Part shown: piece after piece, positions 261-63,075 of the stretch
How positions within the stretch are numbered: the first letter of the stretch is position 1
Layout: each line of letters starts with the position of its first letter
Assembly: GCA_963847495.1 (NCBI GenBank)
Contig: CAWJZX010000013.1
Coordinates: 323,716-387,715, forward strand
From: an uncultured Gammaproteobacteria bacterium
GTDB taxonomy: Bacteria; Pseudomonadota; Gammaproteobacteria; Thiotrichales; Thiotrichaceae
DNA: 64,000 nt
Direction of reading: 5' to 3'
The notes under the pieces: model-generated
What the model saw: the letters and a program-made list of their open reading frames with translations, nothing else
What the model was told of the DNA's origin: nothing
Databases searched by the model: none
Position numbers and translations under genes: made by a program

Positions 261-291
261 AAAACACACCCCCGCCTTTTCGGGTGTTTTT
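261..291. terminator. Bidirectional rho-independent terminator between convergent ndh and hemN; also a hairpin-forming variant of the C-box head
   Basis: AAAAC-ACACCC-ccgccttttc-GGGTGT-TTTTT: a 6-bp GC-rich stem (266-271 with 282-287), with an A-run upstream and a T-run downstream. Confidence 0.6.
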
Positions 292-1669
292 ATATCACTT
301 TAGAAAAACTCTGCTGGGTCGTTTGTTGCCGCAAATGTTCATCAAACACCATACAGATATTACGGATCAACATGCGCCCGCTAGGGCTGACCTTAATATC
401 ACTCTCAGAAACACTGAGTAGCCCATCAGCCTGCATGGCTTTTAACTCTTCGAGTTCTAAAGCGAAGTAATCACTGAAGTGCACACCATATTCTTTCTCG
501 ATTGCTTTGAAGTCCAGTTCAAACTGACAACTCAATTGCTGGATGATAGTGCGACGTATTAGATCATCTTCATCCATTTCAAGGCCGCGGATTATGGGCA
601 GTTTGCCCGCATCAATCGCGGCATAGTAGCCTTCCAGATCTTTGGCATTCTGGCTGTAGCAATTGTGCACGCTACTAATCGAGCTGACACCCATCGCTAC
701 CAGGTCACATTCTGAATGTGTGGTGTAACCCTGAAAATTGCGGTGCAAACTACCCTGCGCCTGTGCAATAGCAAGCTCATCATCGGGTTTGGCAAAGTGA
801 TCCATGCCGATGTATTCATAGCCGGCACTAGTTAATGTATCGATACTGTTATGCAGGATTTCCAGCTTATCACTGGAGCTGGGCAATTCATCGGCATTGA
901 TGCGGCGTTGGGGTTTAAAGATATGTGGCATGTGCGCATAGTTGAAAACTGACATGCGATCAGGATTCATCTCAATTGCTTTTTCCAGGGTTTTTGCAAA
1001 GCCACCAACGGTTTGCAAAGGCAGACCATAAATCAGGTCAATACTCACGGAGTGTGCATCATTTTCACGGCAGGCATCTATAATCGCCTGGGTTTCATTA
1101 ATCGGCTGAATGCGATTTACCGCTTTTTGCACCCTGTCATCCACATCCTGTACGCCAAGGCTAAAACGATTAAAGCCAACTTCGCGTAGCAGCTTGATCG
1201 TCGCTTTACTCACACTTCTGGGATCAATTTCAATTGAGTAATCGCCTGAGTCGTCATCTAACAAGTTGAATGTTTTGTGTGTGTAATCCATTAGAGCTTT
1301 TATTTCATCATGCTTCAAAAATGTCGGCGTACCACCGCCCCAATGCAACTGTTCAACCACGCGTGACTTGTCAAACAGGCGGGCTTGCATATCCATTTCA
1401 CGATACAGATAATCCAGATAGACAGGCGATTTAGAATAATCCTTGGTGGCGATCTTGTTACAGGCACAATAAAAACAAATGGTGTCGCAAAAAGGAATAT
1501 GAAAATACAGCGATAAGGGATCCGCATTATTATTACTCACCTCGGCATGCTGGCGATAATTCGCCTCCTTAAACTCGGGAGTAAAAGAAACCGCTGTCGG
1601 ATATGAAGTATAGCGCGGGCCCGATTTGTCATAGCGTTTAATCAGGTCGGCATCAAATTTGATTTTCAT
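290..1669 (-). CDS. hemN: Oxygen-independent coproporphyrinogen III oxidase (radical SAM)
   Basis: 459 aa. It has the CxxxCxxC radical-SAM motif (HIPFCDTICFYCACNK), GGGTPT, and full-length HemN-like architecture. Confidence 0.93.
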   Translation of the reverse strand: MKIKFDADLIKRYDKSGPRYTSYPTAVSFTPEFKEANYRQHAEVSNNNADPLSLYFHIPFCDTICFYCACNKIATKDYSKSPVYLDYLYREMDMQARLFDKSRVVEQLHWGGGTPTFLKHDEIKALMDYTHKTFNLLDDDSGDYSIEIDPRSVSKATIKLLREVGFNRFSLGVQDVDDRVQKAVNRIQPINETQAIIDACRENDAHSVSIDLIYGLPLQTVGGFAKTLEKAIEMNPDRMSVFNYAHMPHIFKPQRRINADELPSSSDKLEILHNSIDTLTSAGYEYIGMDHFAKPDDELAIAQAQGSLHRNFQGYTTHSECDLVAMGVSSISSVHNCYSQNAKDLEGYYAAIDAGKLPIIRGLEMDEDDLIRRTIIQQLSCQFELDFKAIEKEYGVHFSDYFALELEELKAMQADGLLSVSESDIKVSPSGRMLIRNICMVFDEHLRQQTTQQSFSKVI

Positions 1670-1709
1670 GGGCAGTGAGTTCTCAGTTTAGCATCAGTGA
1701 ATAGTATTA

Positions 1710-1751
1710 ATTGTAGTTTAACAATGCCGGAATAGACTTGATCTGTATCAT
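1710..1751 (-). promoter_or_regulatory. Class II FNR-type promoter of hemN
   Basis: Read on the minus strand: aTGAT-acag-ATCAA (1738-1751; consensus TTGAT-N4-ATCAA). A TACAAT -10 hexamer (1710-1715) starts 30 nt after the box centre, which places the box at about -41.5. The start codon is at 1669. Confidence 0.55.
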
Positions 1752-1776
1752 GATAGTTAAGGAGTCTTTGATTAAG

Positions 1777-1807
1777 CACACCCCCCACCTTATTAAGCGG
1801 TTTTTGC
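1777..1807 (+). repeat. C-box head
   Basis: CACACCCCCCACCTTATTAAGCGGTTTTTGC. Confidence 0.8.
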
Positions 1808-1859
1808 ATAGTATGTTTTGAGTGGTTTCTTTATGCTGGATTATCTCTAATCTATACCG

Positions 1860-3623: not shown

Positions 3624-3725
3624 TTTTTATTACCGACCAATAAAAATACACACTGAATAGTTTAACGTTTAATTCACATATTAATTAAACATAAGTCAAA
3701 AATGAGTGAGAAAGGTCGTTGAATT

Positions 3726-3757
3726 CACACCCCCCTATTTTTTAGGCGGTTTTTTGC
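3726..3757 (+). repeat. C-box head
   Basis: CACACCCCCCTATTTTTTAGGCGGTTTTTTGC. Confidence 0.8.
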
Positions 3758-5618: not shown

Positions 5619-5654
5619 TTGTTTCTTTATAATCTATTGAAAGAGATTATAAAT

Positions 5655-5751
5655 ACACCCCCCACCTTTTTAGGTATTTTTACTTCGGGCCATCATTAAA
5701 AAACAAATCTGTTGTCTCGTTTCACTCGGCTCATTGAGTTTTTTGAAATGA
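5655..5751 (+). repeat. C-box head plus partial middle and tail modules
   Basis: ACACCCCCCACCTTTTTAGGTATTTTT ... CTGTTGTCTCGTTTCACTCGGCTCATTGAGTTTTTTGAAATGA. Confidence 0.8.
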
Positions 5752-6137: not shown

Positions 6138-6418
6138 AGCATTACCTCTTGTGTTTATCTTGCGTTGAATAAATATTTCTAAATGTCGTGCGCCTAACAG
6201 TATATTAAAAAGACCGATAGCCTTCTACACAATTATCGTGTCGCTGGACTGATTATTTTACTTGCGTAGTTTCGAAAATACTTCATAAGTGTCTTATCTA
6301 CAACATAAATATTTCACTTTATCAGCTTTCTATCCGCATTAATCGTGCCATCGGCAAACATCATTTTTCGTTTTTTATATAGTTTTATGAGATTGTTCAA
6401 CGAAATAGATATAATAAA

Positions 6419-6445
6419 GACACCCCCTACTTTATAAAGGACTCT
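6419..6445 (+). repeat. C-box head
   Basis: GACACCCCCTACTTTATAAAGGACTC. Confidence 0.7.
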
Positions 6446-6750
6446 TCTAGTTCTAAATAAAGTAGTGACTAAGACAAATAATTACTTGCTTATTGATCAG
6501 CTTTCGCTTGAAACCATTTTATTAGCGAATCTTCGGTTTACGGCTACGATCATCGTCCATCAATTTAACCAGCTATTAAGACAGAATGTTTATAGTAGAC
6601 TATATTCTTAATGTGGGAACGGTAGATTACCGTTAGAAAGAGCATAATGTAAAACAGAAATATATCCGCGGCTTTTTTGTCTGGACACCTCCATCCCATC
6701 GAAAATATTTATTATCATATCAATACGATTTGTAACACAATTTACAGGAG

Positions 6751-7490: not shown

Positions 7491-7707
7491 TGTTTTTATG
7501 CTTTCAAGGAGTCTCTGATCAAGTCGATAGTATTTAAGGGCAGAAAAAAGTGTCTGTAAGTTTCACGAAGTGAGCCGTAATAGTCATTCTGCATTCGCTT
7601 TTAAGTCATTTGCAAGCAAAGCACTAAATATTGTGGCGATCTTCGGGGAAGTTTCAGGCACTTTTAGCTAGCTTAAAATTATTGGACTTGATTAGAGCCT
7701 GCTTAAT

Positions 7708-7731
7708 GACACCCCCTACTTTTAGACGGTT
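7708..7731 (+). repeat. C-box head, left part (split by the IS3 element)
   Basis: GACACCCCCTACTTTTAGACGGTT is followed directly by the IS3 end. The T-run and module I resume at 8983-9018. Confidence 0.8.
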
Positions 7732-7762
7732 TGACGTGGTCAAGGTATTTAGTACAACCTAG

Positions 7763-8629
7763 TTAAGCCGCTTTTAGTTGTTTCTCAAAATCATTAGGGC
7801 AGACATAATCCAACGTCGAATGTAAACGAAAGCTGTTATAGAACATGGAAATGTACTGCACTATATCCTGTCTTGCTTCATTTCGGGTTCGGTAGTCATA
7901 CCATTGCACCCGTTCCTGTTTCAAGCTGCCAAAGAAGCTTTCGGCGACAGCATTATCCCAACAATTACCTTTGCGGCTCATGCTGCCTGTGATCTTGTTA
8001 TCCTTTAATAACTGTCTAAAAGCGTCACTGCCATATTGAGAGCCTCGATCCGAATGATGTATTAAGCCTGGCTTTGGTCTTCTTTGCCATAGAGCCATTT
8101 TCAACGCATCACAGACCAGTTTGGCTTTTATCTTTTTGCTTGTACTCCAACCAACGACTTTGCGTGAACAAAGATCAATCACAACAGCCAAATATAACCA
8201 GCCTTCGCCTGTATTGATATAGGTTATATCTGAGACGTAGACCTGATCTCTATCTGATACATTAAATCGGCGCTTGAGGACATTGGGATATACAGGATTC
8301 TGATGGTTACTATCCGTGGTTACCTTGTACTTCTTTTTGCGACGAACGCTGATACCTGCTTCGCACATGAGCTTTCTCACTCTGTTTCGGCTAACAACAT
8401 GGCTCAGGGCATTTAACGCCCTCTTCATCCGACGACTGCCATAGCTAAAGTCCGTTACTATCGCGAGTTCTTTAATCCATTCGAGCATCTCCTGATGCTC
8501 TGCCGTCTTTTGTTTGTTGGCGGTTACCTTGCAGTAATGATAATAGCCTTGACGACTGACACCCAAAACCCGACATTGCAGGCTGACTGGATAGGTATTT
8601 TTATGCTGGGTGATAAACGTGTATTTCAC
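7763..8629 (-). CDS. IS3-family transposase OrfB (DDE integrase core)
   Basis: 288 aa with DDE-region motifs (VSDITYI, HHSDRGSQYGS, NAVAESFF). Confidence 0.9.
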   Translation of the reverse strand: MKYTFITQHKNTYPVSLQCRVLGVSRQGYYHYCKVTANKQKTAEHQEMLEWIKELAIVTDFSYGSRRMKRALNALSHVVSRNRVRKLMCEAGISVRRKKKYKVTTDSNHQNPVYPNVLKRRFNVSDRDQVYVSDITYINTGEGWLYLAVVIDLCSRKVVGWSTSKKIKAKLVCDALKMALWQRRPKPGLIHHSDRGSQYGSDAFRQLLKDNKITGSMSRKGNCWDNAVAESFFGSLKQERVQWYDYRTRNEARQDIVQYISMFYNSFRLHSTLDYVCPNDFEKQLKAA

Positions 8630-8919
8630 TTCGTTTCGTTGGCAAAAAATACCGTCGCTTTTTTTAGGATGTCCCTCTCCATTTCAAGACGCTTGATACG
8701 CGCTTTAAGCTTGCGATTCTCTGATTGTTCTGGACTCAACTTACCTTTGCCGACAAAGGCGTGTTTGTCCTTCTCTTGATATTCTTTGACCCAGCGACTG
8801 AGTGCATTGATACCCACTTCAAGATTAAGTGCAGCCTCTGCTCTTGAGTAACCTTGTTCAAGGACGAGACTCACTGCATCCTGTTTAAATTCTTTAGAAT
8901 AGCTTTTTCTTTTTGTCAT
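8626..8919 (-). CDS. IS3-family transposase OrfA (HTH)
   Basis: 97 aa, MTKRKSYSKEFKQDAV..., with a leucine-zipper-like C-terminus. The slippery sequence A AAA AAG lies at 8658-8666 (minus strand). Confidence 0.9.
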   Translation of the reverse strand: MTKRKSYSKEFKQDAVSLVLEQGYSRAEAALNLEVGINALSRWVKEYQEKDKHAFVGKGKLSPEQSENRKLKARIKRLEMERDILKKATVFFANETK

Positions 8920-9980: not shown

Positions 9981-10062
9981 GTGCTATATCACTTTGTAGA
10001 CAAGTGAATCGAGGTTGGTATATTTATTCTTAAGTCACCCCCCTACTTTTAGGCACTTTTTA
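9981..10062 (+). repeat. Module J plus I-like segment plus C-box head
   Basis: GTGCTATATCACTTTGTAGACAAGTGAATCGAG...GTCACCCCCCTACTTTTAGGCACTTTTT. Module J is repeated at 17051-17083. Confidence 0.8.
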
Positions 10063-10085
10063 ATAGAATATAAATACCAACATCC

Positions 10086-10218
10086 CTTATTTCGACCACA
10101 TCGACGATTCCTTGCAGAATCTACGATGGACTTTCTTGGCTCTTGGTGAGCCTAAGAAAGACACCCCCTACCTTTTTAGCACTTTTCCATAAATCAATCG
10201 AGTCTGACCTCATTGATT
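10086..10218 (+). repeat. Module D plus C-box head plus module I
   Basis: TTTCGACCACATCGACG..GAATCTACGATGGACTTTCTTGGCTCTTGGTGAGCCTAAGAAAGACACCCCCTACCTTTTTAGCACTTTT..AATCAATCGAGTCTGACCTCATTGATT. The right arm overlaps the stop of ORF 10210. Confidence 0.85.
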
Positions 10219-10953
10219 CTTTCCCTGGACATTGAAACCACCAAGTATTGAATAAAAATCCGATAAATCGATTTCGCGTTTGTCTGCCAGGGGTTTAACT
10301 TCAGAATAAAGAAATGAATAAAATATGTTTTTTTCTTTAAAGTCTGATGGGAAATAAATATATAAATAGCCATGGCCAACATGTGAGTCTTTATACTGTC
10401 TGTACGTCTTGTACGTCATTGTGTAGAAGTGTTTATTATGTATATTAGTTTCTGACTTTTTTACATCTTTTAATTGATACATCCCCTTCATGACACCCTG
10501 CGCAATCATGTTGGATTCTTCGCCCTTACGGAAGTTATCAGCTACCCAGCGTTCAGAATGCATACCTCCGTAAATACGTGATGCATCCTTCTCAATAACA
10601 ACGATTGCTCTTGAAACGGTGGGTTGCCATCCCTTTTTCTCTACCTGTTTAAATTCCACCACCTGGTGCTGTGGAAATGTCTTTAAATCCCAATCACGGC
10701 CTAGATTGTTCTCTACTGTATAGCGTTTCATCTTGATTGTTGCACCAGAGCGTTTTTGTTGCACTTTTTCAGACTTTTTTTTCTCTGCGATTTGGGTTCC
10801 AAATGCCCCACTTCCATGCCGGTGCTTAATACCTTCTTTTGGTAAAGGATGGCTATGTACTCTTCCTGCATGAGAATGTGTCACACTCTTGGTTTTTGCC
10901 CACCCTGATACAGAAAGTAAAAGGGCCAGTATAATTACACTAGTTTTTATCAT
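10210..10953 (-). CDS. Secreted protein with an N-terminal His-rich module (paralog P1)
   Basis: Signal peptide followed by SVTHSHAGRVHSHPLPKEGIKHRHGSGAFG. The C-terminal domain is unrelated to P2 and P3. Confidence 0.7.
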   Translation of the reverse strand: MIKTSVIILALLLSVSGWAKTKSVTHSHAGRVHSHPLPKEGIKHRHGSGAFGTQIAEKKKSEKVQQKRSGATIKMKRYTVENNLGRDWDLKTFPQHQVVEFKQVEKKGWQPTVSRAIVVIEKDASRIYGGMHSERWVADNFRKGEESNMIAQGVMKGMYQLKDVKKSETNIHNKHFYTMTYKTYRQYKDSHVGHGYLYIYFPSDFKEKNIFYSFLYSEVKPLADKREIDLSDFYSILGGFNVQGKNQ

Positions 10954-11020
10954 TTTGAGTTTTCCACTTTTTTATGAGACGGGAATTACTATAGCTTTTA
11001 GCTGTGCATCTACTCCTCTG

Positions 11021-11848
11021 TCAGTCCATCATGGCATTGATATCACGTAGCATCTTGTTGGCACGTTCCAGAAGCACTGTGTCACCTACGTTGATATTGT
11101 TTTTGAGTATGCATTTGATTTTAAGAACACCACCTTCTTCATTTATTGTTTTGCGTATGCCGCGCCCCAAGTGTTCACCTTTATCAATCTTTCCATCCTT
11201 GTTAATGTCATACAGCCACGCAGTTACTCCTCCACCCAGGTTTTTGTCCTGATTCAGGTCAACATCAGGATAAACCCAAATATCAATCTTTCCATCGTAA
11301 TCCGAGTCAATCAGGTGATGGAATGTCCATACAAGCTTGAAGGTGGGCTTTGTGGTGAATAAACTCCCCTGGTAGTAAACAAGATAATCAGCTTTACCAT
11401 CGTTATTGCGATCGAAAATAAAACCGAAATCCATCTTTGCGGCTCCGGTTTCCGGGGAATAAGAAAATTGGTCAGGACGTTTATCACCGTTGATATCGAT
11501 GAGCTTTAGAATGGGATAGTTCTTAAATGTCCTGGTTCTTGAGGATTTCAAAACTACTCGCGTACGCTATTTCCAAAGCTGCCTGGCGCGTTTATCAAGA
11601 GCATTATAGGTATCTAGATTGCGTTTAATGCGACCAGTTTCAGATTGCCTCGATTTAGCCTGCTTTTTCTCAGATTTTACGGTTACAGGTACACCAAACG
11701 CCCCTCCTCCATACTGATGCCTAATGCCTTGTTTCGGTAAAGGATGGCTATGTACTCTTCCTGCATGAGAATGTGTCACACTCTTGGCCTGTGCCCACCC
11801 TGATACAGAAAGTAAAAGGGCCAATATAATTACACTGTATTTTATCAT
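11021..11848 (-). pseudogene. His-rich-module paralog P2, interrupted by one in-frame TAG; C-terminal Dx[DN]xDG calcium-binding-type repeats
   Basis: Track ORFs 11567..11848 and 11021..11551 are in the same frame (276 codons in total). They are separated only by a TAG at 11567-11569 (...RARQLWK*RTRVVLKSS...). Repeats present: DINGDKRPD, DRNNDGKADY, DSDYDGKIDIW, DINKDGKIDKGE. Confidence 0.7.
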
Positions 11849-12026
11849 GTTGAATTCTCCGCTTTTTTATTAAATACACCCGACATCATTCCTGGATCTA
11901 ACGCTCTGTCTAATGTGGTGCGTAACGAGTCAATTGGAGCCCGCTGAGTTCACCGCTAATGGGAGCGAAGTGTCCTTCTGACAGGCATTGTGTTATGCTT
12001 TTTTTTGATCCTGGTCTAATAAGCGT

Positions 12027-12779
12027 TCATTTCTTTTTCTTTAGCTCACGGACTCTTTGACGGTAGACATCTGGATTATCCGTAACAGATATTGATTTTA
12101 TAATTTGTAGCGCCATATCGTGACCATTGGTCAAGTGGCTTGCCGTTATTACTGCCACCCAGTCAGGTTTTACCTCCACAAAATACCTAATAACCTCAGC
12201 TATATACCTCTTTCCACCACGCGTAAAATTCCATCGACCTATCCACTTTATAGAACCCGAATAGTTAGATTTAAAAGGCACCACTTTAGAACTATCGGCT
12301 GGCTTCCCATGCCTTTTCTCGTTGAATATTACGGTCGCAGACACAGCACGAGCCAATAAGTCTTTACCTTGATACCCCTTAACATCTGTTCCTGGACCCA
12401 GCGAAACACCTGCCTGTTTTTTGCGGTCAGTTGATGTCAGCAAACCTGTTTGATTTGTACGCTGCCACATTCCAGGCAACGAGAAACTAAAACTAAGCAG
12501 ATTTTTGTTGATTTCAAAATAATAAGTCCGATTCTCGCTTGGGATAGGAATAACAGCCGTTTCACTATATCGAATTGGCCCACTCTTTATAGATGGAGCA
12601 GAAGCTACATCTCCACCCGGAACAGCCAAACCAATAGCCCCACCCCCATGCCGGTGCTTAATGCCTTCTTTTGGTAATGGATGAGAATGTTCTCTACCTC
12701 CATGAGTATGAGGTACTGGAGCAGCATAAATAATTGTGCAACATAAGCTTATCAATATTAAAGCTATTAGATTATTCAT
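12027..12779 (-). CDS. Secreted protein with an N-terminal His-rich module (paralog P3)
   Basis: Signal peptide followed by PVPHTHGGREHSHPLPKEGIKHRHGGGAIG, then a distinct C-terminal domain. Confidence 0.7.
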   Translation of the reverse strand: MNNLIALILISLCCTIIYAAPVPHTHGGREHSHPLPKEGIKHRHGGGAIGLAVPGGDVASAPSIKSGPIRYSETAVIPIPSENRTYYFEINKNLLSFSFSLPGMWQRTNQTGLLTSTDRKKQAGVSLGPGTDVKGYQGKDLLARAVSATVIFNEKRHGKPADSSKVVPFKSNYSGSIKWIGRWNFTRGGKRYIAEVIRYFVEVKPDWVAVITASHLTNGHDMALQIIKSISVTDNPDVYRQRVRELKKKK

Positions 12780-12968: not shown

Positions 12969-13190
12969 TTATTTACAGTGCTGTCCAATCCGCGTGGCCT
13001 GCACAGCCTCAGTCTTAATCCCATCCGCCAAAACCGTTTCACTCGCCACAATATCTACCTTCTGTTTGGCTCGCGTTATTCCCGTATAAATCAACTGTCT
13101 TGTGAGTAATGGCATGACTTCATGTGGCAGTATCAATGCAACTTAGTCAAATTCTGAACCCTGGCTTTTGTGGATGGTCATTGCCCATGT
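12969..13190 (-). pseudogene. 3' remnant of a second recD copy
   Basis: Translation is TWAMTIHKSQGSEFD*VALILPHEVMPLLTRQLIYTGITRAKQKVDIVASETVLADGIKTEAVQATRIGQHCK*. It closely parallels the RecD C-terminus at 18815..19040. There is an in-frame TAA at 13143-13145, and similarity is lost above about 13190. Confidence 0.8.
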
Positions 13191-13318
13191 GTATAAGCGG
13201 GGTCAGCGTAAACTTTAATACCTTGCTTTGCAGATAAATATTATTGGCAAGGAGGCTGTCGTACTGATAGATTTATAGCTGTATCTTTTAATGCTGTCGC
13301 ATTTTGTACTTAAAAAAA

Positions 13319-13530: not shown

Positions 13531-13532
13531 GG

Positions 13533-13703: not shown

Positions 13704-13748
13704 AGAATTTTCTCGCTAAACACTTTTATTTTGACTAATCATAATTGC

Positions 13749-13836
13749 AGGTCGGATAAGCATAGCGCCATCCGACATGACCATGATTGATACCACACAA
13801 ATGTCGGATGGCGTACCTTATCCGACCTACCGCGCT
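13749..13836. repeat. REP-like palindromic doublet
   Basis: AGGTCGGATAAG..CGCCATCCGACAT - loop - ATGTCGGATGGCG..CTTATCCGACCTAC. It resembles enterobacterial REP (…CTTATCCGGCCTAC). Confidence 0.8.
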
Positions 13837-50659: not shown

Positions 50660-51805
50660 TCAGCCACTGTCCAGATATGGGGAGTTTATCAAGGCGGTAA
50701 TGTGCATAATGGCCTTTTTACAGCATGGACAGGGCAGTCCGTTAAAGGGTTCTACCGGTTGCTCTACTTTGTCTGCGCAGGACACCTGTTGATGACTTTT
50801 TTCCTGCACCATTGCTTCTTTGATCCTGGGTAGTTTCTTTGCCCGACTGGCATTCGCCAGCCAGCCAAAGTGCCGTACCCGCATAAACCCTTTGGGAAGG
50901 ACATGCTGTAAGAAGCGCCTGAGGAATTCGGTACCTGCCAGTGTCATGATCTTTTTCCGGTTGTCACGGTAATCTCGGTAGTGAAAACTGACAGTATCCC
51001 CATCCATATGACTCAAGCGGCTGTCAGACAGCGCAATGCGGTGGGTATAGCGTCCCAGATAGTCGATGATACTACGGGCTTGCTGCAAACACGGTTTGGC
51101 AAAAACCACCCACGTTTTCTGCATTAAAGTGTCTAGAACAGTCTCGATCTCTCCCTGGTGTGTTACTCGTGATAAGTGCCCTGTCTTGGCAGCATTACAC
51201 AAGGCGCTGACCATTTTTCCACGAAAGCGTTTGGACAAGGCCTTGACGGGAAACAGATAGGTACTCTTAGCAGCATGCCATTGACCATCATGACTGAGGG
51301 CTCCGCCGGGAACCAGACAATGCAAATGAATATGCTGGTCAAGTGTCTGGCCCCAGGTGTGCAATACGGCGGTCATACCCAGTTCGCCATTGAGGTGTTT
51401 AGGATTCTGGCCAAAATCGGATAGGGTCTGCCAGACACTGGCGAAGAATAAGTTATAAATCACTCGGGGGTGCAGCCTTACCCAGCCATTGAGGGTATGC
51501 GGCAGGGTAAACACCAGATGGTAGTAGGTGACCGGTAACAGATAACTGGCCTGTCTGTCACACCACTGCTGTGTAGCCTGGTGCTGGCAGCGGGTACAAT
51601 GCCGGTTGCGGCAGGCATGGTACAAGATCGCCTGATGACCACATTGATCACAACGTAATGCAAAACCACCCATAACCTCTGTGCGGCATTGCTGTAGGTG
51701 GCGGCACACAGTGAGTTTCTGATGACTCAGGGCTTGTTGCTGTTGCAGGGCGGGTAAAAACTGTTCCAGTACTGCCTGCATACGCAATCTAGACATGCTC
51801 GGCAA
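50660..51805 (-). CDS. IS91-family transposase
   Basis: 381 aa with an N-terminal Cys-rich zinc-binding region (CDQCGH...CRNRHCTRC) and HxH motifs (HIHLHCLV) typical of the IS91 Y2 transposase. Confidence 0.85.
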   Translation of the reverse strand: MPSMSRLRMQAVLEQFLPALQQQQALSHQKLTVCRHLQQCRTEVMGGFALRCDQCGHQAILYHACRNRHCTRCQHQATQQWCDRQASYLLPVTYYHLVFTLPHTLNGWVRLHPRVIYNLFFASVWQTLSDFGQNPKHLNGELGMTAVLHTWGQTLDQHIHLHCLVPGGALSHDGQWHAAKSTYLFPVKALSKRFRGKMVSALCNAAKTGHLSRVTHQGEIETVLDTLMQKTWVVFAKPCLQQARSIIDYLGRYTHRIALSDSRLSHMDGDTVSFHYRDYRDNRKKIMTLAGTEFLRRFLQHVLPKGFMRVRHFGWLANASRAKKLPRIKEAMVQEKSHQQVSCADKVEQPVEPFNGLPCPCCKKAIMHITALINSPYLDSG

Positions 51806-52646
51806 GCCTCAGGTGTGCGAGCAAGTCAATGCTTCGGCCACCTTCACCCGTTTCTGGTAGCCAGTGTGTGTAGCGTAAGGTCGAGTTTAGGTGTCGATGC
51901 CCCAGCTGTTGTTGCAACTGATGGATCGGCATTCCCTGTTGCAGGCAGTGGGTGGCATAGGCGTGGCGCAGACTGTGAATACCACCCGGTTTATCGATAC
52001 CAGAGTGCTGTTTTGCCCGTTGGAACACCTTCTGTGGTGTCGTCATACCAATATGAGAACCGGATTTCTTTCCGGGAAACAGGCAATCTGGTGGACGGTA
52101 GCGGAACCAGTAACGCCGTAAGTGGCATAACAAGGTCATGCCGATTGGAATTAGCCTATCCCGATGCCCTTTTCCCTGGGTCACACGTAACAGCTGCTGT
52201 TGACCATCAATATCAGCAACCTTTACTCGAGTCAGCTCATTGACACGCAGCCCACAGCCGTAACACAGTTTCAACATCATGCGATCACGCACCCGCAAGG
52301 GTGCACAGATAATCGCTGCAACTTCCAAGGGATTTAGCAGAGTCGGAATCCGCTGCTGTTGTTTAGGCAGAATAAAACCATGACTGACGAAATCATCCCG
52401 TTTGAGTACACGGGTAAATAAAAAACTGACACTATTGAAATACAGGTGACAACTGGACGGAGCCAGTTGCCGTTCCTTGGTCAGATATAACAACCATTGT
52501 TCAATCTGATGCAGGGACAGGCGATCAGGGGATTGCCCGGCGTAATGTGCCAGGCTCTGAACCCCAGCCAAATAGGTATCTTGTGTTCGCTGGCTAAAAC
52601 CATGCAGCAGCATGGTATCGATCATTTGTTGACGTAAGGGCGTCAT
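51789..52646 (-). CDS. Tyrosine recombinase (phage-integrase family) associated with the IS91-like transposase
   Basis: 285 aa with the catalytic region ...GLRVNEL...HSLRHAYATH...LGHRHLNSTLRYTH. It overlaps the transposase gene. Confidence 0.85.
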   Translation of the reverse strand: MTPLRQQMIDTMLLHGFSQRTQDTYLAGVQSLAHYAGQSPDRLSLHQIEQWLLYLTKERQLAPSSCHLYFNSVSFLFTRVLKRDDFVSHGFILPKQQQRIPTLLNPLEVAAIICAPLRVRDRMMLKLCYGCGLRVNELTRVKVADIDGQQQLLRVTQGKGHRDRLIPIGMTLLCHLRRYWFRYRPPDCLFPGKKSGSHIGMTTPQKVFQRAKQHSGIDKPGGIHSLRHAYATHCLQQGMPIHQLQQQLGHRHLNSTLRYTHWLPETGEGGRSIDLLAHLRLAEHV

Positions 52647-52845: not shown

Positions 52846-52959
52846 ATTTGACTTGTCATTCTTGGCTTTTGGTAAGCCTAAGAAAGCCACCCCCCCCTAC
52901 TTTTACGTGGTTTTTTTCATTTAACTTAATGAAAACCACGCCCTTCAAGTAGTCGTCGC
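52846..52959 (+). repeat. Partial module D plus C-box head plus module F (left part, split by IS110 copy 2)
   Basis: CATTCTTGGCTTTTGGTAAGCCTAAGAAAGCCACCCCCCCCTACTTTTACGTGGTTTTTTTCATTTAACTTAATGAAAACCACGCCCTTCAAGTAGTCGTCG. Confidence 0.85.
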
Positions 52960-54148
52960 TACGCTTGTATGGTAATTCCTGCCCTTATCTACGATCATAG
53001 TTAAGGCATCGGGGAGGGGGAGGTTTTTCGCTACGTATCTGCCACTAGAATGTGTACAGACTGTTGGAGATATCACCCCTCCGCCCCACTCATCAATAAG
53101 CGCCTATAAAGAATCTTGCCCGCACGGCCGATTTCAACAAGCTTGCGCTATCGATGTTCCCCGACTTCTCTACAATACTCTGGAGTAAATCTTATGGCAA
53201 TGATGACAGTTAACACTGAACTCGGAATAGACGTAGCCAAAGACTGGCTTGATATTTCTAATGGTAAGGACGTTGTACGTATCAAGAATAATCAACAAGC
53301 AATAAAGAGCTATCTTAAACAACTAGGTACAACGGCGTGTATTTCAATTAAATCAACAAATACGTACCATGAATTATTTGTTGAACTAGCCTTTCTTGCC
53401 AAGCATACAATCTATATCGTCGATGCCTATAGGCTCTCACGCTACCGTGATGCCGTTGGCATCAGGGCTAAAACAGACACCAATGATGCCCATTTATTAT
53501 TGCGATATATGAGATCAGAAAAGCAACACCTGACTGTTTTTGAACCTATTCCAAAAGCCGTTAAACGCCTTAATCGCTTACTTAAAGCACGCGCTAAACT
53601 GGCTAAATCAAAAGCATCCATTGGCCTTTCTCTAAAAGGTGTCGCAGAGTTAGCACAAACATGTAAAGCCCTAATGAAACGGATTGAACAAGCGATAACG
53701 TTGATTGATAAACGTATTCAAGCCTGCATCAAAGACGCTGGATATAAAGAAGATTACATGCGTTGTTTGAGCATTCCAGGGATCGGTCCTGCTAATGCGG
53801 CGGCCTTAGTTGCGATGTTTCATCGCGGACACTTTCGAAAATCAGACTCGTTCATCGCCTTCATTGGACTCGATGTGAGAGTACGTGAATCAGGATACTA
53901 CAAAGGTAGGAGAAAACTAACCAAACAAGGAAACCCAGAAATACGAAGATTGCTGTTTAATGCAGCAAGAGCTGCCGCAAGAACAGAAACATGGAATAAC
54001 TACTATATGTCTATGAGAGCACGTGGACATTCAACAACCGCTACTGCGGTTTCGCTCTCTCGAAAAATAGCTAGATTAGCTTTTGCTTTGCTAAGAGATC
54101 AATCTGAATTTAGAACTGCGTAAGTGTTTGACAATTACCATAGAATCT
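52960..54148 (+). mobile_element. IS110-family element, copy 2 (diverged from copy 1; boundaries +/- about 8 bp), inserted in a C-box module
   Basis: It splits ...GTAGTCGTCG | IS | CCAACATTGTCT.... The intact equivalent at 54737-54770 reads GTAGTCGTCGTTTCACACCAACGTTGTCT. The end sequences match copy 1 (GCTTGTATGG... and ...CATAGAATCT). Confidence 0.8.
53194..54123 (+). CDS. IS110-family transposase with a Glu-to-Lys change at the conserved DEDD glutamate
   Basis: Likely start at ATG 53194 (MAMMTVNTELGIDVAKDWL). It is about 70% identical to copy 1 by eye. SIKSTNTYH replaces AIESTNTYH (AAA for GAG at about 53350). Confidence 0.85.
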   Translation: MAMMTVNTELGIDVAKDWLDISNGKDVVRIKNNQQAIKSYLKQLGTTACISIKSTNTYHELFVELAFLAKHTIYIVDAYRLSRYRDAVGIRAKTDTNDAHLLLRYMRSEKQHLTVFEPIPKAVKRLNRLLKARAKLAKSKASIGLSLKGVAELAQTCKALMKRIEQAITLIDKRIQACIKDAGYKEDYMRCLSIPGIGPANAAALVAMFHRGHFRKSDSFIAFIGLDVRVRESGYYKGRRKLTKQGNPEIRRLLFNAARAAARTETWNNYYMSMRARGHSTTATAVSLSRKIARLAFALLRDQSEFRTA

Positions 54149-54990
54149 CCAACATTGTCTATGAAGTACTTCCCTGTACTTCACCTCTTCGAGGCAGCTT
54201 CGTTTCACTCAACTGTTCAAATTCATTCCAGATGAATTTGTCGGTTTCACTCGGCTTGGCACTTTTTTAGCAAAGAACTATTTTCTAACCCCCCCCCCCA
54301 TTCAAACAAGCCGAGCCACGCAGGAAATTGACGATAAAAGCTGTAGCTGTTTGAGCGTCAGCGAGTTCTACAGCCGCGTCTATTTTCGAGTAGTGAGGCG
54401 ACTACATGGACGTAGGAGGTAGAGCAACGCAGGAGCAGTTGCCGAGAACCGTTTACGGCTTGTTTGTTGAACAGCCTTTTGTTTGGTTCTGTTTATTTTG
54501 GCTGCGCAAAATAAATGAACTCGTAGCTTCGCTACGAAACCATTGAAATGACACCCTCCTACTTTTAGCCTGTTTTTTAAACAGACTGCCCAAATACCAG
54601 TATCCCTTGCTGCAACCACCTCTCGGATCAATTCTTGACCGTTCGAGACAATTTGTCCGCCCTAGCGGCTTAACAAATCGACTTTTACGTGGTTTTTTCA
54701 TTTAACTTAATGAAAACCACACCCTTCGGGTAGTCGTCGTTTCACACCAACGTTGTCTCGGCTGCGCCCCGGCTAGGCTCTTTTTCAAAACTGTTTGAGA
54801 TCAACCACCTCTCAGATCAGTTCCTGATCTAATCGAGATAATTTATTGGCCCTAGCGGCCTAATAAACCAACTTCACCTCTTCGAGGCAGCTTCGTTTCA
54901 CTCAACTGTTCAAATTCATTTCAGATGAATTTGTCGGCTGTGCCTCGGCTAAGCCGTTTTTCATTAATTTCTGCACAATGCATTCATCAG
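54149..54990 (+). repeat. Composite non-coding array of C-box-system modules (F-end, G, H, head, E, F, E, G)
   Basis: The whole interval is contiguous and each segment has at least one homolog elsewhere in the window: G at 54163-54268, H at 54300-54526, head at 54550-54578, E at 54613-54686, F at 54686-54775, E at 54802-54875, and G at 54875-54962. Track ORFs 54380..54631 and 54453..54701 lie in it and are judged spurious. Confidence 0.85.
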
Positions 54991-55413: not shown

Positions 55414-55425
55414 TTCATTTAAAGA

Positions 55426-55452
55426 GACACCCCCCACTTTTAGGTACTTTTT
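55426..55452 (+). repeat. C-box head
   Basis: GACACCCCCCACTTTTAGGTACTTTTT. Confidence 0.8.
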
Positions 55453-55507
55453 CATAAACTTGCTACGCAATACATTCATGAGCAGTTAATTAACTAACTG
55501 CTAAAGT
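55452..55507 (+). promoter_or_regulatory. Repeated promoter/operator module upstream of the NERD gene
   Basis: Perfect 12-bp palindrome AGTTAATTAACT (55484-55495) is followed by TGCTAAAGT (55499-55507). Confidence 0.4.
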
Positions 55508-56523: not shown

Positions 56524-56538
56524 AAACACATTAAAAGT

Positions 56539-56640
56539 GACAACCCCCTTCTTTTAGCCACTTTTTCTATAACACCGCTGTTTTTAACTCCCATTCCAAA
56601 CAAGCCTAGCCACGCAGGAAATTGACGATAAAGGCAATTT
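56539..56640 (+). repeat. C-box head plus truncated module H
   Basis: GACAACCCCCTTCTTTTAGCCACTTTTT ... CCATTCCAAACAAGCCTAGCCACGCAGGAAATTGACGATAAAGGC. Confidence 0.8.
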
Positions 56641-57051: not shown

Positions 57052-57235
57052 TTATCTACTTACGGATAGTGTTCAATGGTAGACCACGCTTTTTTATCAA
57101 TTTACTGTTAGTTTGATATTAAAACGCTCGATAACCGGGTATTCGCCTACCCAGCTACGCCCGTATTTTAATTCTAGTTCATTTTCACCAGTTTTTATTA
57201 CTCGATAATAATTAGGGTCAGAGTAAAATAAAAAT

Positions 57236-57590
57236 GACACCCCCCACCTTTTAGGCACTTTTTCCAAATATCACTGTTTTTAATCCCTATCCAAAAAAGC
57301 TGAGCCACGCAGGAAATTGACGATAAAGGCTGTAGCTGTTTAAGCGTAAGCGAGTTCTACAGCCGCGTCGATTTTCGAGTAGTGAGGCGACTACATGGAC
57401 GTAGGAGATAGTGCAACGCAGGAGCAGTTGCCGAGAACCGTTTACGGCTTGTTTGCTGGGCAGCCTTTTGTTGATTCGACTGCGTCTCACCCTAAAGGGC
57501 TATCTTTCTGTGAAAGATATTGTCTCACTAACGTTCGGCTGGTTGTTTATTTTGGCTGCGCAAAATAAATGAACTCGTAGATGGCATTAG
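57236..57590 (+). repeat. C-box head plus a full module H (second copy, with an internal insertion of about 75 nt)
   Basis: GACACCCCCCACCTTTTAGGCACTTTTT ... AAGCTGAGCCACGCAGGAAATTGACGATAAAGGCTGTAGCTGTTTAAGCG...CCGTTTACGGCTTGTTTG...GTTTATTTTGGCTGCGCAAAATAAATGAACTCGTAG. Track ORF 57287..57490 is judged spurious. Confidence 0.85.
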
Positions 57591-58677: not shown

Positions 58678-58982
58678 GCTTCCCCCGATCTTTTAAGGAA
58701 ATATCAATGCGGTAACCCGTATATATATTATTTATAGCCTGGATAAGGCACGCCATCCGACTTTTGGATGTGATCAACGATGATCGTGTTGTACGGCGCT
58801 ATCGCGTATAAGACCTACGCACTGAAGCTTTTTTCTGAACTCGTAGCTTCGCTACGAAATCCTTTTAAAAGACACCCCCTGCTTTTAGACATTTTTTCCC
58901 TTGCTTCTACCACCCCTCGGATCAATGCTTGATCTGTCGAGACAATTTGTTCGCCCTAGCGGCATAACAAATCGACTTTTCT
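58678..58982 (+). repeat. Degenerate head, REP-like doublet, CGTAGC hairpin, C-box head and module E
   Basis: CTTCCCCCGATCTTTTAAGG (58679); GGATAAGGCACGCCATCCGAC...GCGTATAAGACCTACGCAC (58741-58828); CTCGTAGCTTCGCTACGAAA; GACACCCCCTGCTTTTAGACATTTTTT (58871); CCACCCCTCGGATCAATGCTTGATCTGTCGAGACAATTTGTTCGCCCTAGCGGCATAACAAATCGACTTTT. Confidence 0.8.
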
Positions 58983-59216
58983 TATGGTTATATAGAAAGA
59001 AACAATTATTCTTCGACTCTATTAACAATTGTTAATTACAATTTACAAGTAATCTCGTAGATTCGGTTACGTATCAGGCAATCATCCCCCCAATGATGCC
59101 TGATTAGTTCTTCAGGCCGTGCCAGTGTTCTATAGTATTTAATTCTTCCTTCCTTTGGTAATACTATAGATACGCTGGCTTTTTTATTAAATCTGCATAA
59201 GATAACCTGTAAATTC

Positions 59217-59350
59217 ATACCCCCTACTTTTAGGCACTTTTTCTAATGACACTGCGTGCAAAAATCCTGATTGCTGAATATCCGTAAAATAAGATTATGC
59301 ATAATACGGGCAAGATGAAAGGTATCTCGTAGCTCCGCTACGGAGCTAAG
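59217..59350 (+). repeat. C-box head plus CGTAGC-type hairpin
   Basis: ATACCCCCTACTTTTAGGCACTTTTT ... CTCGTAGCTCCGCTACGGAGC. Confidence 0.7.
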
Positions 59351-60181: not shown

Positions 60182-60268
60182 AGTAATTGAGTATAGTTCA
60201 AATATTTTAGCATATAGTCATCTATAGAAAGTTACTCGCAGCTATTAGCTATGAAATCTAATTAAATG

Positions 60269-60475
60269 CACACCCCCTACTTTTAAGTGAATTTTATGCG
60301 GCTGCGCCTTCCCTACGGGTCTGCTAAAGCTGCTGTCTCACTGCGTTCGGCTGACACTTTTTTAAACAGTCTGCCCGATTACCAGTGTCCATATCTGCAA
60401 CCACCTCTCGGATCAACTCTTGATCTGTCGAGACGATTTGTTATACCTAGCGGCATAACAAATCGACTTTTCTGA
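60269..60475 (+). repeat. C-box head plus module B variant plus module E
   Basis: CACACCCCCTACTTTTAAGTGAATTTTATGCGGCTGCGCCTTCCCTACGGGTCTGC...CAACCACCTCTCGGATCAACTCTTGATCTGTCGAGACGATTTGTTATACCTAGCGGCATAACAAATCGACTTTT. Track ORF 60287..60475 is judged spurious. Confidence 0.85.
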
Positions 60476-60837: not shown

Positions 60838-60928
60838 AGGGTGCCTGGCTAAGGCACTCCATCCAGCTTTTAGTGTGATCAACGATGGTCATGTCGTATG
60901 GCGCTATCGCTTATAAGACCTACGCACT
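60838..60928. repeat. REP-like doublet
   Basis: CTGGCTAAGGCACTCCATCCAGC...GTCGTATGGCGCTATCGCTTATAAGACCTACGCAC; a homolog of 58741-58828. Confidence 0.7.
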
Positions 60929-60960: not shown

Positions 60961-61638
60961 ATGATCCCCTCGACATTATTAGGCACAGCCAGCATTCCCA
61001 ATAACGGTGGTGAATTGAGGCTAACTCAACACGGGAATGATTTTTCTATTCATCTAAAAGGTGTACGTGGAGAGTTAATGAATAGTCGGGTGCATTCTTC
61101 CGAGCTAGCCCTGGCTGAGTTAGGTTGTGCGCATATTCAAGGGATTAAGGATACCAAGGTGTTAGTCGGAGGCTTGGGGATGGGCTTCACTCTGGCCGCA
61201 GCCCTCAAAGCAACATCTAAAAGTTCTCAGGTGCTTGTTGCGGAACTGGTACCAGAAATTATCGAATGGAATAAAGGCCCATTAGGCGAATCTGCAGGAA
61301 GGCCGCTTGATGATAATCGGGCTCTGGTACATTTGGGCGATGTGGCTGAACTTTTCAAAACTAAGCAAGCCACTTATGACGCTATTATATTAGATGTTGA
61401 TAACGGCCCCGAGGGCTTTACACACGCCGACAATAACAATCTGTATTCAATCGAAAGTTTACACGCTATACGGCAAACACTTCATCCTGGTGGCGTGTTA
61501 GCTATATGGTCAGCCTGGCATGATCCAAAATTCACCCAGCAATTGAAAAAAGCACGTTTTGAAGTTGAAGTTAAAACCGTCAGGGCACATAAAGGCAAAG
61601 GCAGTCGTCATACAATTTATCTGGCCAGGAAAAGATAG
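60961..61638 (+). CDS. Spermidine-synthase-like SAM-dependent methyltransferase-fold protein
   Basis: 225 aa with VLVGGLGMGFTLAAAL and IILDVDNGP motifs. Confidence 0.65.
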   Translation: MIPSTLLGTASIPNNGGELRLTQHGNDFSIHLKGVRGELMNSRVHSSELALAELGCAHIQGIKDTKVLVGGLGMGFTLAAALKATSKSSQVLVAELVPEIIEWNKGPLGESAGRPLDDNRALVHLGDVAELFKTKQATYDAIILDVDNGPEGFTHADNNNLYSIESLHAIRQTLHPGGVLAIWSAWHDPKFTQQLKKARFEVEVKTVRAHKGKGSRHTIYLARKR

Positions 61639-61699
61639 GAAGTTAGTAAGGAGGAATAGTAGGTGACTGAAGTAGCTATGTTGCTGAAGACAAGAAGGT

Positions 61700-61910
61700 A
61701 TATTGTAGCTCCACTACGAAACCTTTATAAAATATTCCCTTGTTAATGAAGTACATCCCTGTAATACACCTCTTCGAGGTAGTTTCGTTGCACTCAAATT
61801 TCAAATACATTCCAGATGAATTCGTCGGCGATGCCCGGCTCAGCAAAACACTATTTTTAAATCCCATTTAGACAAGCCGAACCGCGCGGGAAATCGATAA
61901 TTGAGGTTTA
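61700..61910 (+). repeat. CGTAGC-type hairpin plus module G plus truncated module H
   Basis: TTGTAGCTCCACTACGAAA; GAAGTACATCCCTGTAATACACCTCTTCGAGGTAGTTTCGTTGCACTCAAATTTCAAATACATTCCAGATGAATTCGTCGG; CCCATTTAGACAAGCCGAACCGCGCGGGAAATCGATAA. Track ORF 61676..61867 is judged spurious. Confidence 0.75.
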
Positions 61911-62084
61911 ACTACTTGAAAGTTAGCGTGTTTAATTAAATTGCCTTGAACAATTATACGTATGGCCCGAAGGATCAAGCACTAAAGATATACATGTCCC
62001 TGCGATGCTAAACATCTGACGTAATAGATTAAAACCAGAGCAAATCATGAGTGCAAGCGGATAAAAGATATCCAGCAAAATTAT

Positions 62085-62834
62085 TTATTCAGAATGGATT
62101 TCTGCAGTTCTTCGCAGACCTGCTTCATCAAATAGCATTTTATTAGGCCCATCTTTAGTCAGCAACTGTTTACGTTTGAATTCTGAAAGTACCCGGCTTA
62201 CTGATTCCCTCGTTACCCCGGTCAAAGCGGCAAAATCATCAATGCCCATGATCTCGATTCCACTTTTAGCCTCATGATTTGCCTCGTCAATCAACATCAA
62301 CAACACACGTGCGCAGCGCTGCTTAAGTGTTCCCGTAGAGAACTCTACAAGAACCCTGCCCGATGCTTCCATCTGTAGATGCCACTCTTTTAATACTGAT
62401 TTATAGAAGTCAGGATCAGAAGTTAAAATACCGTTAATAACTTCGTAGGGAACTCTGCAAACTTCTGTATCCTTTAAGGCAATCGCAGTCTGGTCAAAGC
62501 GTTGACCATTATTCAGAAATGATTCCACGCCGGCAACCCCCCCTTTTCTCACCAGTCTAACTATTCGAATAGTGCCGTCACTGAGTGTTTCTTCAAGTTT
62601 TAACAGTCCCTTACGAACTACGTACATCTCTATGGCTGGTGAGTTTTCAACGTATAACATAGACTTTTTCGCATAGCTATACAGAACGATACGTTTAAGC
62701 AAAGCATCATATTTTTGCAAGTTGACCTCAGCAAATATATCGAATTTTCGAATTGGGCAATGCTGACAGTCTGCGCGCCCTTCCCATTTTGGATCGATAC
62801 ATTTTGTGTGATTCGGTGCTTTAGTCATTTTCAC
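62085..62834 (-). CDS. Crp/Fnr-family transcriptional regulator with an N-terminal Cys cluster
   Basis: 249 aa with an N-terminal C-X10-C-X2-C plus a central Cys, a cNMP-like beta-barrel, and the C-terminal HTH FAALTGVTRESVSRVLSEF. Confidence 0.8.
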   Translation of the reverse strand: MKMTKAPNHTKCIDPKWEGRADCQHCPIRKFDIFAEVNLQKYDALLKRIVLYSYAKKSMLYVENSPAIEMYVVRKGLLKLEETLSDGTIRIVRLVRKGGVAGVESFLNNGQRFDQTAIALKDTEVCRVPYEVINGILTSDPDFYKSVLKEWHLQMEASGRVLVEFSTGTLKQRCARVLLMLIDEANHEAKSGIEIMGIDDFAALTGVTRESVSRVLSEFKRKQLLTKDGPNKMLFDEAGLRRTAEIHSE

Positions 62835-63046
62835 CTCAATTAAATGAAATCTGTGTTAAGTAGATTGGTATTTTTAAGATTGCTTTCTTTTTATATTTAT
62901 ATATATGTAGAGAGAGAAAGGTCAGTATATGCTCATTGTCACCTATAAGTATATGTCATTGATTTATATGCTTTTTATATATTTTTATATTAAATAATAT
63001 ATACTTAGGATCAAGTAATAAAAGAGGCTAGACTAAAATAAACAAA

Positions 63047-63075
63047 GACACCCCACTACTTTTAGGCACTTTTTA
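63047..63075 (+). repeat. C-box head
   Basis: GACACCCCACTACTTTTAGGCACTTTTTA. Confidence 0.8.

Follow-up and report, generated by a model that had tools for sequence, protein, structure and literature searches.

A one-way 30-bp repeat linked to replication direction on a Cocleimonas-like chromosome

A 64,000-nucleotide stretch of contig CAWJZX010000013.1 (assembly GCA_963847495.1, positions 323,716 to 387,715), from here on the window, carries 33 copies of a short sequence that we call the head, all of them on the plus strand. It is a piece of ordinary chromosome from a marine sulfur bacterium, a Cocleimonas-like gammaproteobacterium (Thiotrichaceae). The evidence supports a link between the orientation of the heads and the direction of replication, and we suggest, with a probability that we put at roughly 40%, that the head is a dispersed motif which is maintained by the host and whose copies are made or repaired at the replication fork, in a single-strand step that is specific to one strand. 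In broad terms the head is one of the short interspersed repeats of genomes, alongside REP elements and DNA-uptake sequences, and it has long been retained by its host lineage. No known repeat family combines its density, its conservation across species and its one-way orientation.

The head and its strand bias

The head is a non-palindromic sequence of about 30 bp, with the consensus AAA-GACAC-C(5-8)-YAC(C)-TTTTA-N5-TTTTT and a profile information content of 38.6 bits. An earlier reading of this DNA, made from the sequence only, had listed 33 copies on the plus strand and none in the G-rich orientation (heads are named here by the start positions that it gave). The listed sites were aligned to build an nhmmer profile, with which both strands of the window were scanned. 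All 33 heads were recovered on the plus strand at the listed positions, with E values from 5e-10 to 1.5e-3, and the minus strand gave no head match (best E>6). The two-sided binomial probability of a 33:0 split is 2.3e-10. Word counts in the window are similarly one-sided (plus to minus, ACACCCCC 22:1, CCCCCYAC 24:0 and CCCCCC 33:0), and the exact gapped head pattern has 10 matches against 0.00 expected from shuffles. The mean distance between heads is 1.96 kb, in line with the earlier estimate of about one copy per 2 kb, and 33 heads per 64 kb would extrapolate to hundreds or thousands per genome. As the flanks of the copies are mutually unrelated, segmental duplication does not account for them.

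The C-tract, first read as 5-8 C, is mostly 5-7 C, but its range widens to 3-8 when interrupted tracts are counted. The two T-tracts start 10 nt apart, and both are kept while the weakly constrained N5 spacer, most commonly GGCAC, varies. Two degenerate copies proposed at 58679 and 37219 both lie on the plus strand and are plausible as decayed heads, although they fall below the profile threshold. C runs of six or longer outside the heads are likewise confined to the plus strand of the window, and a run of 11 C at 54289-54299 opens another repeat module, whose family has members at 54288, 56582, 57277 and 61854.

Single heads form stems of just 3-5 bp and fold at -3 to -6 kcal/mol. The mean minimum free energy is -2.9 kcal/mol for the plus strand (z -0.29 against shuffles) and -5.9 kcal/mol for the G-rich minus strand (z -0.62, p 0.013); folding better than shuffles is thus limited to the G-rich strand, which we note as a single-strand hint. 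The exception is head 264 (260-294, 25.5 bits), which abuts the hemN stop and has a real hairpin, ACACCC/GGGTGT, the sole good one among the copies. Apart from this copy, the earlier statement that the head has no strong hairpin is correct, and the non-palindromic unit, the weak folds and the gene-independent orientation agree with the statement that it is neither a classical REP palindrome nor a terminator. Rfam at the gathering score gave 0 matches over the whole window, ARAGORN found no tRNA or tmRNA in it, and a search of the available literature found no paper on Cocleimonas repeats. The earlier reading was right that the repeat has no name. The G strand of the head carries a GT[AG]G tetranucleotide (GTAG or GTGG). 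Its core GTGGGGGGTGT resembles the nick region of the F-plasmid relaxase, GTGGGGTGT|GG, a likeness that may be coincidence.

Heads were placed relative to genes with a greedy set of 61 open reading frames (ORFs), 40 on the minus and 21 on the plus strand. Some 15.2 kb of intergenic DNA holds 31 of the 33 heads (94%), and about half of the intergenic gaps hold one; the two others (6%) lie in about 48.7 kb of coding DNA. The repeat is therefore mostly intergenic, as had been said, but two copies that are read in frame inside recD and recB had been missed. Head density is similar in all spacer types, with 2.4 per kb in convergent, 2.0 and 2.2 in tandem and 1.45 in divergent spacers, which argues that heads are not confined to terminator positions. 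For many heads a stop codon is 5-40 nt away, on one side or the other (5-41 nt after plus-strand genes and 9-26 nt before the stops of minus-strand genes), which bears out the distances first described. Among the roughly 12 heads that follow plus-strand genes none is flipped, and orientation is therefore not set by the neighbouring gene, again as the sequence-only reading had it. Its suggestion that the heads might function as a transcribed RNA module is not supported, since their orientation ignores transcription, their density is alike across spacers and Rfam has no match.

Orientation and replication direction

GC skew is negative in 13 of the 16 4-kb bins of the window and the cumulative curve falls steadily. 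With the heads masked, G-rich words favour the minus strand (plus to minus, GNTGGTGG 3:9 and GGTGGTT 0:13), and two thirds of the coding length lies on that strand. Taken together, the negative GC skew, the skew of G-rich words and the strand bias of genes indicate that the minus strand is the leading strand. The G-rich strand of the heads thus falls on the leading strand and is the lagging-strand template, while the C-rich strand corresponds to the nascent lagging strand.

Like the window, two related sequences carry their heads on one strand. In L112, a metagenome contig from the European Nucleotide Archive (ENA) and the closest relative compared (82% DNA identity over the recB-RNase R-SpoU-isocitrate lyase block), this holds for 7 of 7 heads, and in Cocleimonas flava (L113) for at least 8 of 8, with the same sense relative to recBD as in the window. 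Thirty recD-anchored metagenome loci yielded 17 heads, all antisense to recD and limited to loci whose RecD is at least 57% identical. The orientation relative to recBD is identical in at least 65 copies against 0, from at least 10 species. Where single copies are neighbours in blocks of 8 kb from other Cocleimonas genomes, co-orientation prevails 32:11 (p 0.002), and orientation is constant along contigs of about 100-174 kb, in blocks up to 150 kb apart. The sequence-only reading had proposed plotting orientation against GC skew; in the related genomes the two agree in sign 29:9 where the absolute skew exceeds 0.05. Of the causes that it suggested, a link to replication direction is supported by leading-strand composition, by the agreement with skew, by constancy over 100-170 kb and by conservation relative to recBD.

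In two further metagenome loci, L118 and L122, which come from more distant relatives (RecD about 60% identical), heads of a related dialect (CAC8-9 T5-6 N5 T-run, with no YAC) occur in both orientations, suggesting that the family predates strict polarity or that polarity was lost in those lineages. Some metagenome-assembled genomes (MAGs) also show mixed head orientation, even within co-directional gene runs.

Clade range, conservation and coding copies

The motif is specific to the Cocleimonas/Thiotrichaceae clade. A motif scan of one genome per species returned at least 111 blocks, overwhelmingly from Cocleimonas species and other Thiotrichaceae, and among the matches listed other taxa had single chance matches only. 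The RecD homologues agree with this placement of the window, the named ones being those of C. flava, Cocleimonas sp. KMM 6892 and Cocleimonas MAGs. By Pfam the window encodes hemN, thioredoxin, recB, recD, RNase R, an rRNA methylase, isocitrate lyase, NnrS, a Crp-type regulator and several insertion sequences (IS). A phage or plasmid origin was rejected, as megablast gave no phage match and plasmid matches that were trivial, and the Pfam content is that of housekeeping genes.

Orthologous heads in recB, in recD and after the SpoU methylase gene are present in the window, L112 and C. flava. In the window they lie at 20773-20806, 20019-20053 and 28372-28402, the last 41 nt past the stop of the plus-strand SpoU gene; the SpoU-associated copy of C. 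flava is a weak match (E 0.003) lying within the gene. Orthologous heads have an identical core and diverged surroundings. Downstream of SpoU just AAAAGACACCCCCC aligns, and at 82% DNA identity the intergenic alignment with L112 fails outside the heads. The heads of C. flava carry a species dialect, in which TTTGAGGCAC or TTTGGGGCAC replaces TTTTAGGCAC. As the motif is kept while the flanks and the 5-nt internal spacer drift, the heads are maintained and are not the decaying relics of a transposon.

In RecD the head lies in a hypervariable loop, bounded by the Walker A motif and AAPTGKAA, and is translated in frame (…KKWGGV…). About 50 RecD orthologues (57-82% identity) keep K(W/V/K)GG(V/G) in this loop, some of them twice, and in orthologues without a head the loop is about 10 residues shorter. 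The recB copy is likewise translated in frame, in a C-terminal loop (…SAYKWGGVFF…), and adds 6-10 residues ahead of a conserved G-V-F. In recB the GGTGTCTTT of the head coincides with the conserved G-V-F codons, and in recD its A-run coincides with the conserved I-E-K codons. Since the ends of the coding copies vary and overlap conserved codons, their arrangement looks like seeding on partial matches, and not like the insertion of a unit with fixed ends. In the comparison with L112 empty sites were shown for a 66-nt module and a classical REPIN only, described below, and none was clean for a head. Synteny with L112 breaks at head 13319 and at the head at 18796-18829 (24.1 bits), which provides the final codons and the stop codon of recD.

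Heads as insertion targets

The heads act as an insertion target for other mobile DNA. Compared with L112, the recD head of the window holds a 66-nt in-frame insertion (20040-20105, plus strand, by three-way alignment) between CACTTT and TGRSCACTTTTTT, which adds 22 residues to RecD. The inserted module has the pattern TTACTCG…CGCCCTTCGGGC…GTTGTCTCG…CTCGGC, and members of its family follow the YAC-TTTT of heads 13319, 31034, 34957, 48970 and 60269, with one more in locus L001; the junction after YAC-TTTT recurs in at least five composites. As the module part is near-identical between copies while the head part varies, the module is a separate tiny mobile element that targets heads. The first of these heads (13314-13348, 35.5 bits), which has an orthologue in L112, is followed by modules 2 and 3, as is 48965-48999 (33.0 bits). 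Module 2 follows 34953-34985, which starts 5 nt past the stop of a plus-strand gene, and 60264-60297 (22.9 bits); at 31029-31062, after a plus-strand gene, module 2 is joined by an IS110 insertion.

An IS3-family element (7740-8919, orfA/orfB on the minus strand, Pfam rve/HTH_21) abuts head 7708 (7704-7732, 25.2 bits), whose terminal T-run is shortened at the start of the element. Three IS110-family transposase genes lie on the plus strand at 15764-16786, 31339-32283 and 53116-54123, and two of them belong to related elements (GCTTGTATGG…CATAGAATCT) that are inserted in modules beside heads 31034 and 52888. The latter (52883-52917, with C8) adjoins both IS110 and an IS91/integrase region, where an IS91-family Y2 (HUH) transposase gene overlaps a tyrosine recombinase gene at 50660-52646; this is the sole HUH enzyme seen in the window.

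A classical REP family of the GTAG type, distinct from the heads, is also present. Its doublet at 13745-13830 (GTAGGTCGGATAAGG…CATCCGACAT) is absent at the orthologous site of L112 and is thus a clean, true insertion; further copies lie at 15540-15605, 58741-58802 and 60868-60907. A small ORF of about 56 aa with its leader, at 13530-13752, shares 95% of its DNA sequence with L112, where the genes around it share about 82%, and the leader recurs beside another REP at 15611-15677.

Twelve inverted head pairs were found in other Cocleimonas genomes, all with the C-rich arm first. They form hairpins between the A-run and the T-run, some with perfect 29-nt arms. No such pair occurs in the window, L112 or L113.

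How the heads may be copied

In the proposed mechanism, which would both make the copies and keep them uniform, a C-rich single strand with the motif would anneal to the lagging-strand template, or be inserted across from it, wherever a partial match to the motif already exists, and would then join the nascent lagging strand. The strand might come from an element yet to be identified, from the product of an HUH-type enzyme or from incoming transforming DNA. Once present, a head acts as a landing pad for other mobile DNA and may also contribute weak termination at gene ends. The model would account for a C-rich strand that is invariably the lagging one, for coding copies that lack fixed ends and overlap codons conserved beforehand, and for old orthologous copies in the present dialect of their species. 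The content of 38.6 bits points to copying rather than to point mutation. A single-strand step at the fork would thus explain the polarity, the seeding on partial matches, the tracking of dialects and the high information content together. Targeting of the lagging-strand template in a fork-coupled manner is established (IS200/IS605), and REPs in frame in protein loops have been reported (PMC6006769).

Several observations weigh against this proposal. Neither an enzyme nor a source of the template strand came to light in the DNA sampled: the Y1_Tnp (IS200/RAYT) domain was absent from the approximately 38 of 61 window ORFs scanned with Pfam, and about 0.95 Mb of related loci gave no IS200-type match. 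The RAYT query was unreliable, having itself no Pfam Y1_Tnp match, and its negative carries no weight. The sequence-only reading had recommended a look for a RAYT or Y1 gene elsewhere in the genome; none was seen to the extent of this sample and with that query. Y1 enzymes require a hairpin, and single copies do not have it. Some relatives depart from strict polarity, with 11 of 43 adjacent pairs discordant, and the sole hint of a flip at the origin or terminus is one C. flava contig with opposite orientation in blocks 440 kb apart. Selection for a protein-binding site, or a molecular drive by uptake, could account equally well for the conservation and the tracking of dialects. Of the two mechanisms first suggested, an oriented signal and strand-specific single-strand spread, features of both are seen, orthologous conservation and dialects on the one hand and insertion-like copies on the other, and they do not come apart in these data.

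Alternative explanations

The head could be a polar DNA-uptake sequence, a self-DNA tag for the competence machinery that accumulates by uptake bias and recombination, with the bias a consequence of efficient transformation by only one of the strands, which would be integrated for preference on the lagging strand. We regard this reading, its account of the bias included, as unlikely. Like the DNA uptake sequences (DUS) of Neisseriaceae and the uptake signal sequences (USS) of Pasteurellaceae, which occur about once per 1-2 kb, are clade-specific and form dialects, the head is found once per 2 kb, in a single clade and with species dialects. In both a non-palindromic core precedes phased AT-tracts, which in the head are two T-tracts phased 10 nt apart; extended USS likewise consist of a core plus phased T-tracts. 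In both, copies at orthologous sites are kept while their flanks drift, and many copies lie near gene ends. The sole two coding heads, a small sample, sit in variable loops of recB and recD, where compatible codons are re-used, and may parallel the coding copies of DUS and USS in tolerant loops of genome-maintenance proteins. DUS and USS are enriched in genome-maintenance genes, and about half of them lie in terminators (bioRxiv 10.1101/2025.10.24.684340). A minority of DUS and USS are inverted pairs that form terminator-like hairpins, and the 12 pairs of the sister genomes are hairpins flanked by A- and T-runs, as USS pairs are (PMC7811141). All of those pairs, however, have a single arrangement (12:0), and for USS pairs both arrangements are found (PMC7811141). 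The bias of the head with replication is near total, while DUS and USS show no orientation bias relative to replication (PMC1939737). Just 6% of the heads are in genes, and at about 39 bits the head is longer and richer than known uptake sequences, and the length of its C-tract varies. A literature search that covered repeat and genome papers only gave no report of competence in Cocleimonas.

Another reading that we find improbable is that of a polar chromosomal signal, kept by selection and used by a machine linked to replication, segregation or repair, such as a long analogue of KOPS or Chi or a lagging-strand priming site. Spacing of about 2 kb falls within the range of Okazaki fragments. 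As with KOPS and Chi, the head is over-represented, its G-rich strand is on the leading strand and its polarity goes with the direction of replication. This polarity is shared between species and extends over long contigs; conservation at orthologous sites that follows the dialects also fits. Sequences that interact with replication would be expected to show an orientation bias (PMC1939737). In the window the canonical KOPS GGGNAGGG stands at 1:2, with no enrichment, and GCTGGTGG at 0:1. Identity with KOPS or Chi themselves, as words of 5-8 nt spread over coding and non-coding DNA alike, was rejected on length (30 bp against 8), on sequence, which is unrelated to either word, and on the near exclusion of heads from genes. 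No polar signal is known that is 30 bp long or confined to intergenic DNA, and weak selection per site could hardly make thousands of 39-bit sites without copying. Moreover, a Chi-like word, GNTGGTGG, already exists separately and is itself skewed in the window (9:3, minus to plus), relaxed polarity is evidently tolerated in some relatives, and there is no candidate for a reader protein.

That the heads are a family of weak two-way transcription terminators, or remnants of palindromic terminators that have lost one arm, is in our view very unlikely. Their proximity to stops would fit, as would those that fill whole convergent spacers, such as 33406-33440 in a spacer of 70 nt. The A-run upstream and the T-run downstream of the head, and the strong hairpins with A- and T-run flanks that the paired versions form in sister genomes, would fit as well. 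No canonical terminators were found at gene ends by a consensus scan of 25-45 kb, and RNA of the minus strand, with a U-run behind it, has a slight folding advantage over shuffles. Orientation nevertheless never follows the gene, divergent (promoter) spacers carry heads at 1.45 per kb against 2.0-2.4 elsewhere, single copies fold weakly, and the conserved copies inside recB and recD are left unexplained. An intrinsic terminator family in the strict sense was rejected on the weak folds, the gene-independent orientation and the presence of heads in 6 of 11 divergent spacers, and the derivation of single heads from palindromes that lost the G arm is unsupported, as the N5 consensus GGCAC differs from the expected remnant GGTGTC.

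We also give little credence to an ordinary RAYT-driven REP/REPIN family, whose single copies would be dead halves and whose polarity would be a by-product of which half survived replication. IS insertion in or beside REPs is known, and the heads have IS3- and IS110-family elements in or beside them. Like the REP, BIME and REPIN elements of RAYT (TnpA-REP) systems, heads are short, extragenic and abundant, carry GT[AG]G on the G strand, and in some genomes form inverted doublets whose long, perfect arms fold into hairpins. In-frame REPs in protein loops (PMC6006769) are a further parallel, and the classical REPIN in the window behaves as a true insertion. A REP is defined as an imperfect palindrome with GT[AG]G 0-2 nt 5' of the hairpin foot (PMC6006769); as applied here, to a unit of 20-40 nt whose basal stem spans 7 bp or more, this definition does not describe the head, which has stems of 3-5 bp and no GT[AG]G at a foot. 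Canonical REP identity was therefore rejected, the unit not being a palindrome and GT[AG]G lying on the loop side in doublets. In those doublets the tetranucleotide is within the hairpin and not at its 5' foot, and the arrangement with the G arm first is seen in 0 of 12. Heads have a strict single orientation and do not form alternating clusters, single copies are conserved across species and do not decay, and doublets are absent from the window, L112 and L113. The ORFs and loci sampled above gave no RAYT, with the same limit on the query, and a genuine GTAG-REP family coexists with the heads at 13745-13830.

A mini-element of the IS200/IS605 type resembles the head in an orientation tied to the lagging-strand template, with neither inverted terminal repeats nor a visible target duplication. 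Such elements have subterminal hairpins and defined ends beside a target of 4-5 nt. This identity was rejected because the head, at about 30 nt, has no subterminal hairpins, no fixed boundaries and no Y1 transposase in the sampled DNA, and is conserved between species. Elhai and colleagues reportedly described in 2008 small dispersed repeats (SDRs) of 20-30 nt in heterocystous cyanobacteria that appear inside other repeats, and Rickettsia palindromic elements (RPEs), which are palindromic and longer, occur in frame inside genes. These are similar to the heads in being very small repeats with nested insertions of tiny modules; they differ in clade and sequence, and we know of no report of replication polarity for either. 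An integron-like cassette array was rejected, since there is no attC structure with R''/R' (AAC…GTT) and the "cassettes" carry essential genes, and a phage-type RNA polymerase or sigma-54 promoter on either strand was rejected by inspection, the TGGCAC-N5-xxGC spacing fitting copy 44604 only.

Other copies and features of the window

The heads not placed above, all on the plus strand, are given here with their nhmmer scores or settings. Upstream of the IS3-family element there are copies at 1773-1805 (21.1 bits), 2338-2370 (21.6 bits, 25 nt from the stop of a minus-strand gene), 3722-3754 (22.2 bits), 5649-5682 (23.5 bits) and 6414-6447, which is the weakest (15.2 bits) and lies in a divergent spacer. 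Two copies lie close together at 10032-10063 (28.4 bits) and 10155-10186 (24.2 bits), the second with a hairpin module, CTTGGCTCTTGGTGAGCCTAAG, just before it, and another, at 17102-17136 (27.1 bits), falls between two plus-strand ORFs. The middle of the window holds 37067-37101 (26.1 bits), 40944-40978 (31.6 bits, in a divergent spacer), 42412-42445 (18.8 bits, with an interrupted C-tract), 44599-44632 (23.4 bits) and 48225-48259 (27.0 bits). Further on, 54545-54579 scores 27.7 bits, 55421-55454 and 56534-56569 start 8 and 11 nt past the stops of plus-strand genes, and the last copies are at 57231-57264 (33.1 bits), 58867-58898 (24.0 bits), 59212-59245 (22.9 bits) and 63044-63076 (30.1 bits).

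Three tandem paralogous genes without a Pfam family, one with a weak EF-hand match, lie at 10210-12779 and have blocks of 80-177 nt in common at 84-88% identity. What seems to be a gene fragment lies at 12979-13191, about 120 nt from head 13319, where 213 nt duplicate the 3' end of recD (78%).

Significance

Short dispersed repeats are usually split into selfish palindromes (REP/REPIN) and uptake tags (DUS/USS), both free of polarity, and polar 8-mers such as KOPS and Chi. The head combines traits of both groups: its sequence is long and specific, its copies are many, follow clade dialects and are conserved at orthologous positions (also in frame in RecB and RecD), and its orientation with replication is near-total. 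It is possible, though on balance doubtful, that the head is a signal of an undescribed kind, either a third uptake-sequence family and the first to be replication-locked, or a long polar chromosomal signal. If the polar uptake version were true, transformation or strand integration would be coupled to the fork; the polar signal version would imply, for example, a preferred lagging-strand priming or loading site about every 2 kb that is read by a replication-associated protein.

If the polarity stems from the way in which copies are made, the heads would represent a natural, strand-specific and fork-coupled writing of sequence in a free-living bacterium, and if it stems from function, they would be a new polar signal or a polar uptake sequence outside the two known families. 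In practical terms, the heads create hotspots for the insertion of IS and mini-elements, and they mark replication direction and Cocleimonas origin in metagenome contigs. Cocleimonas flava, which carries them, is a cultured species.

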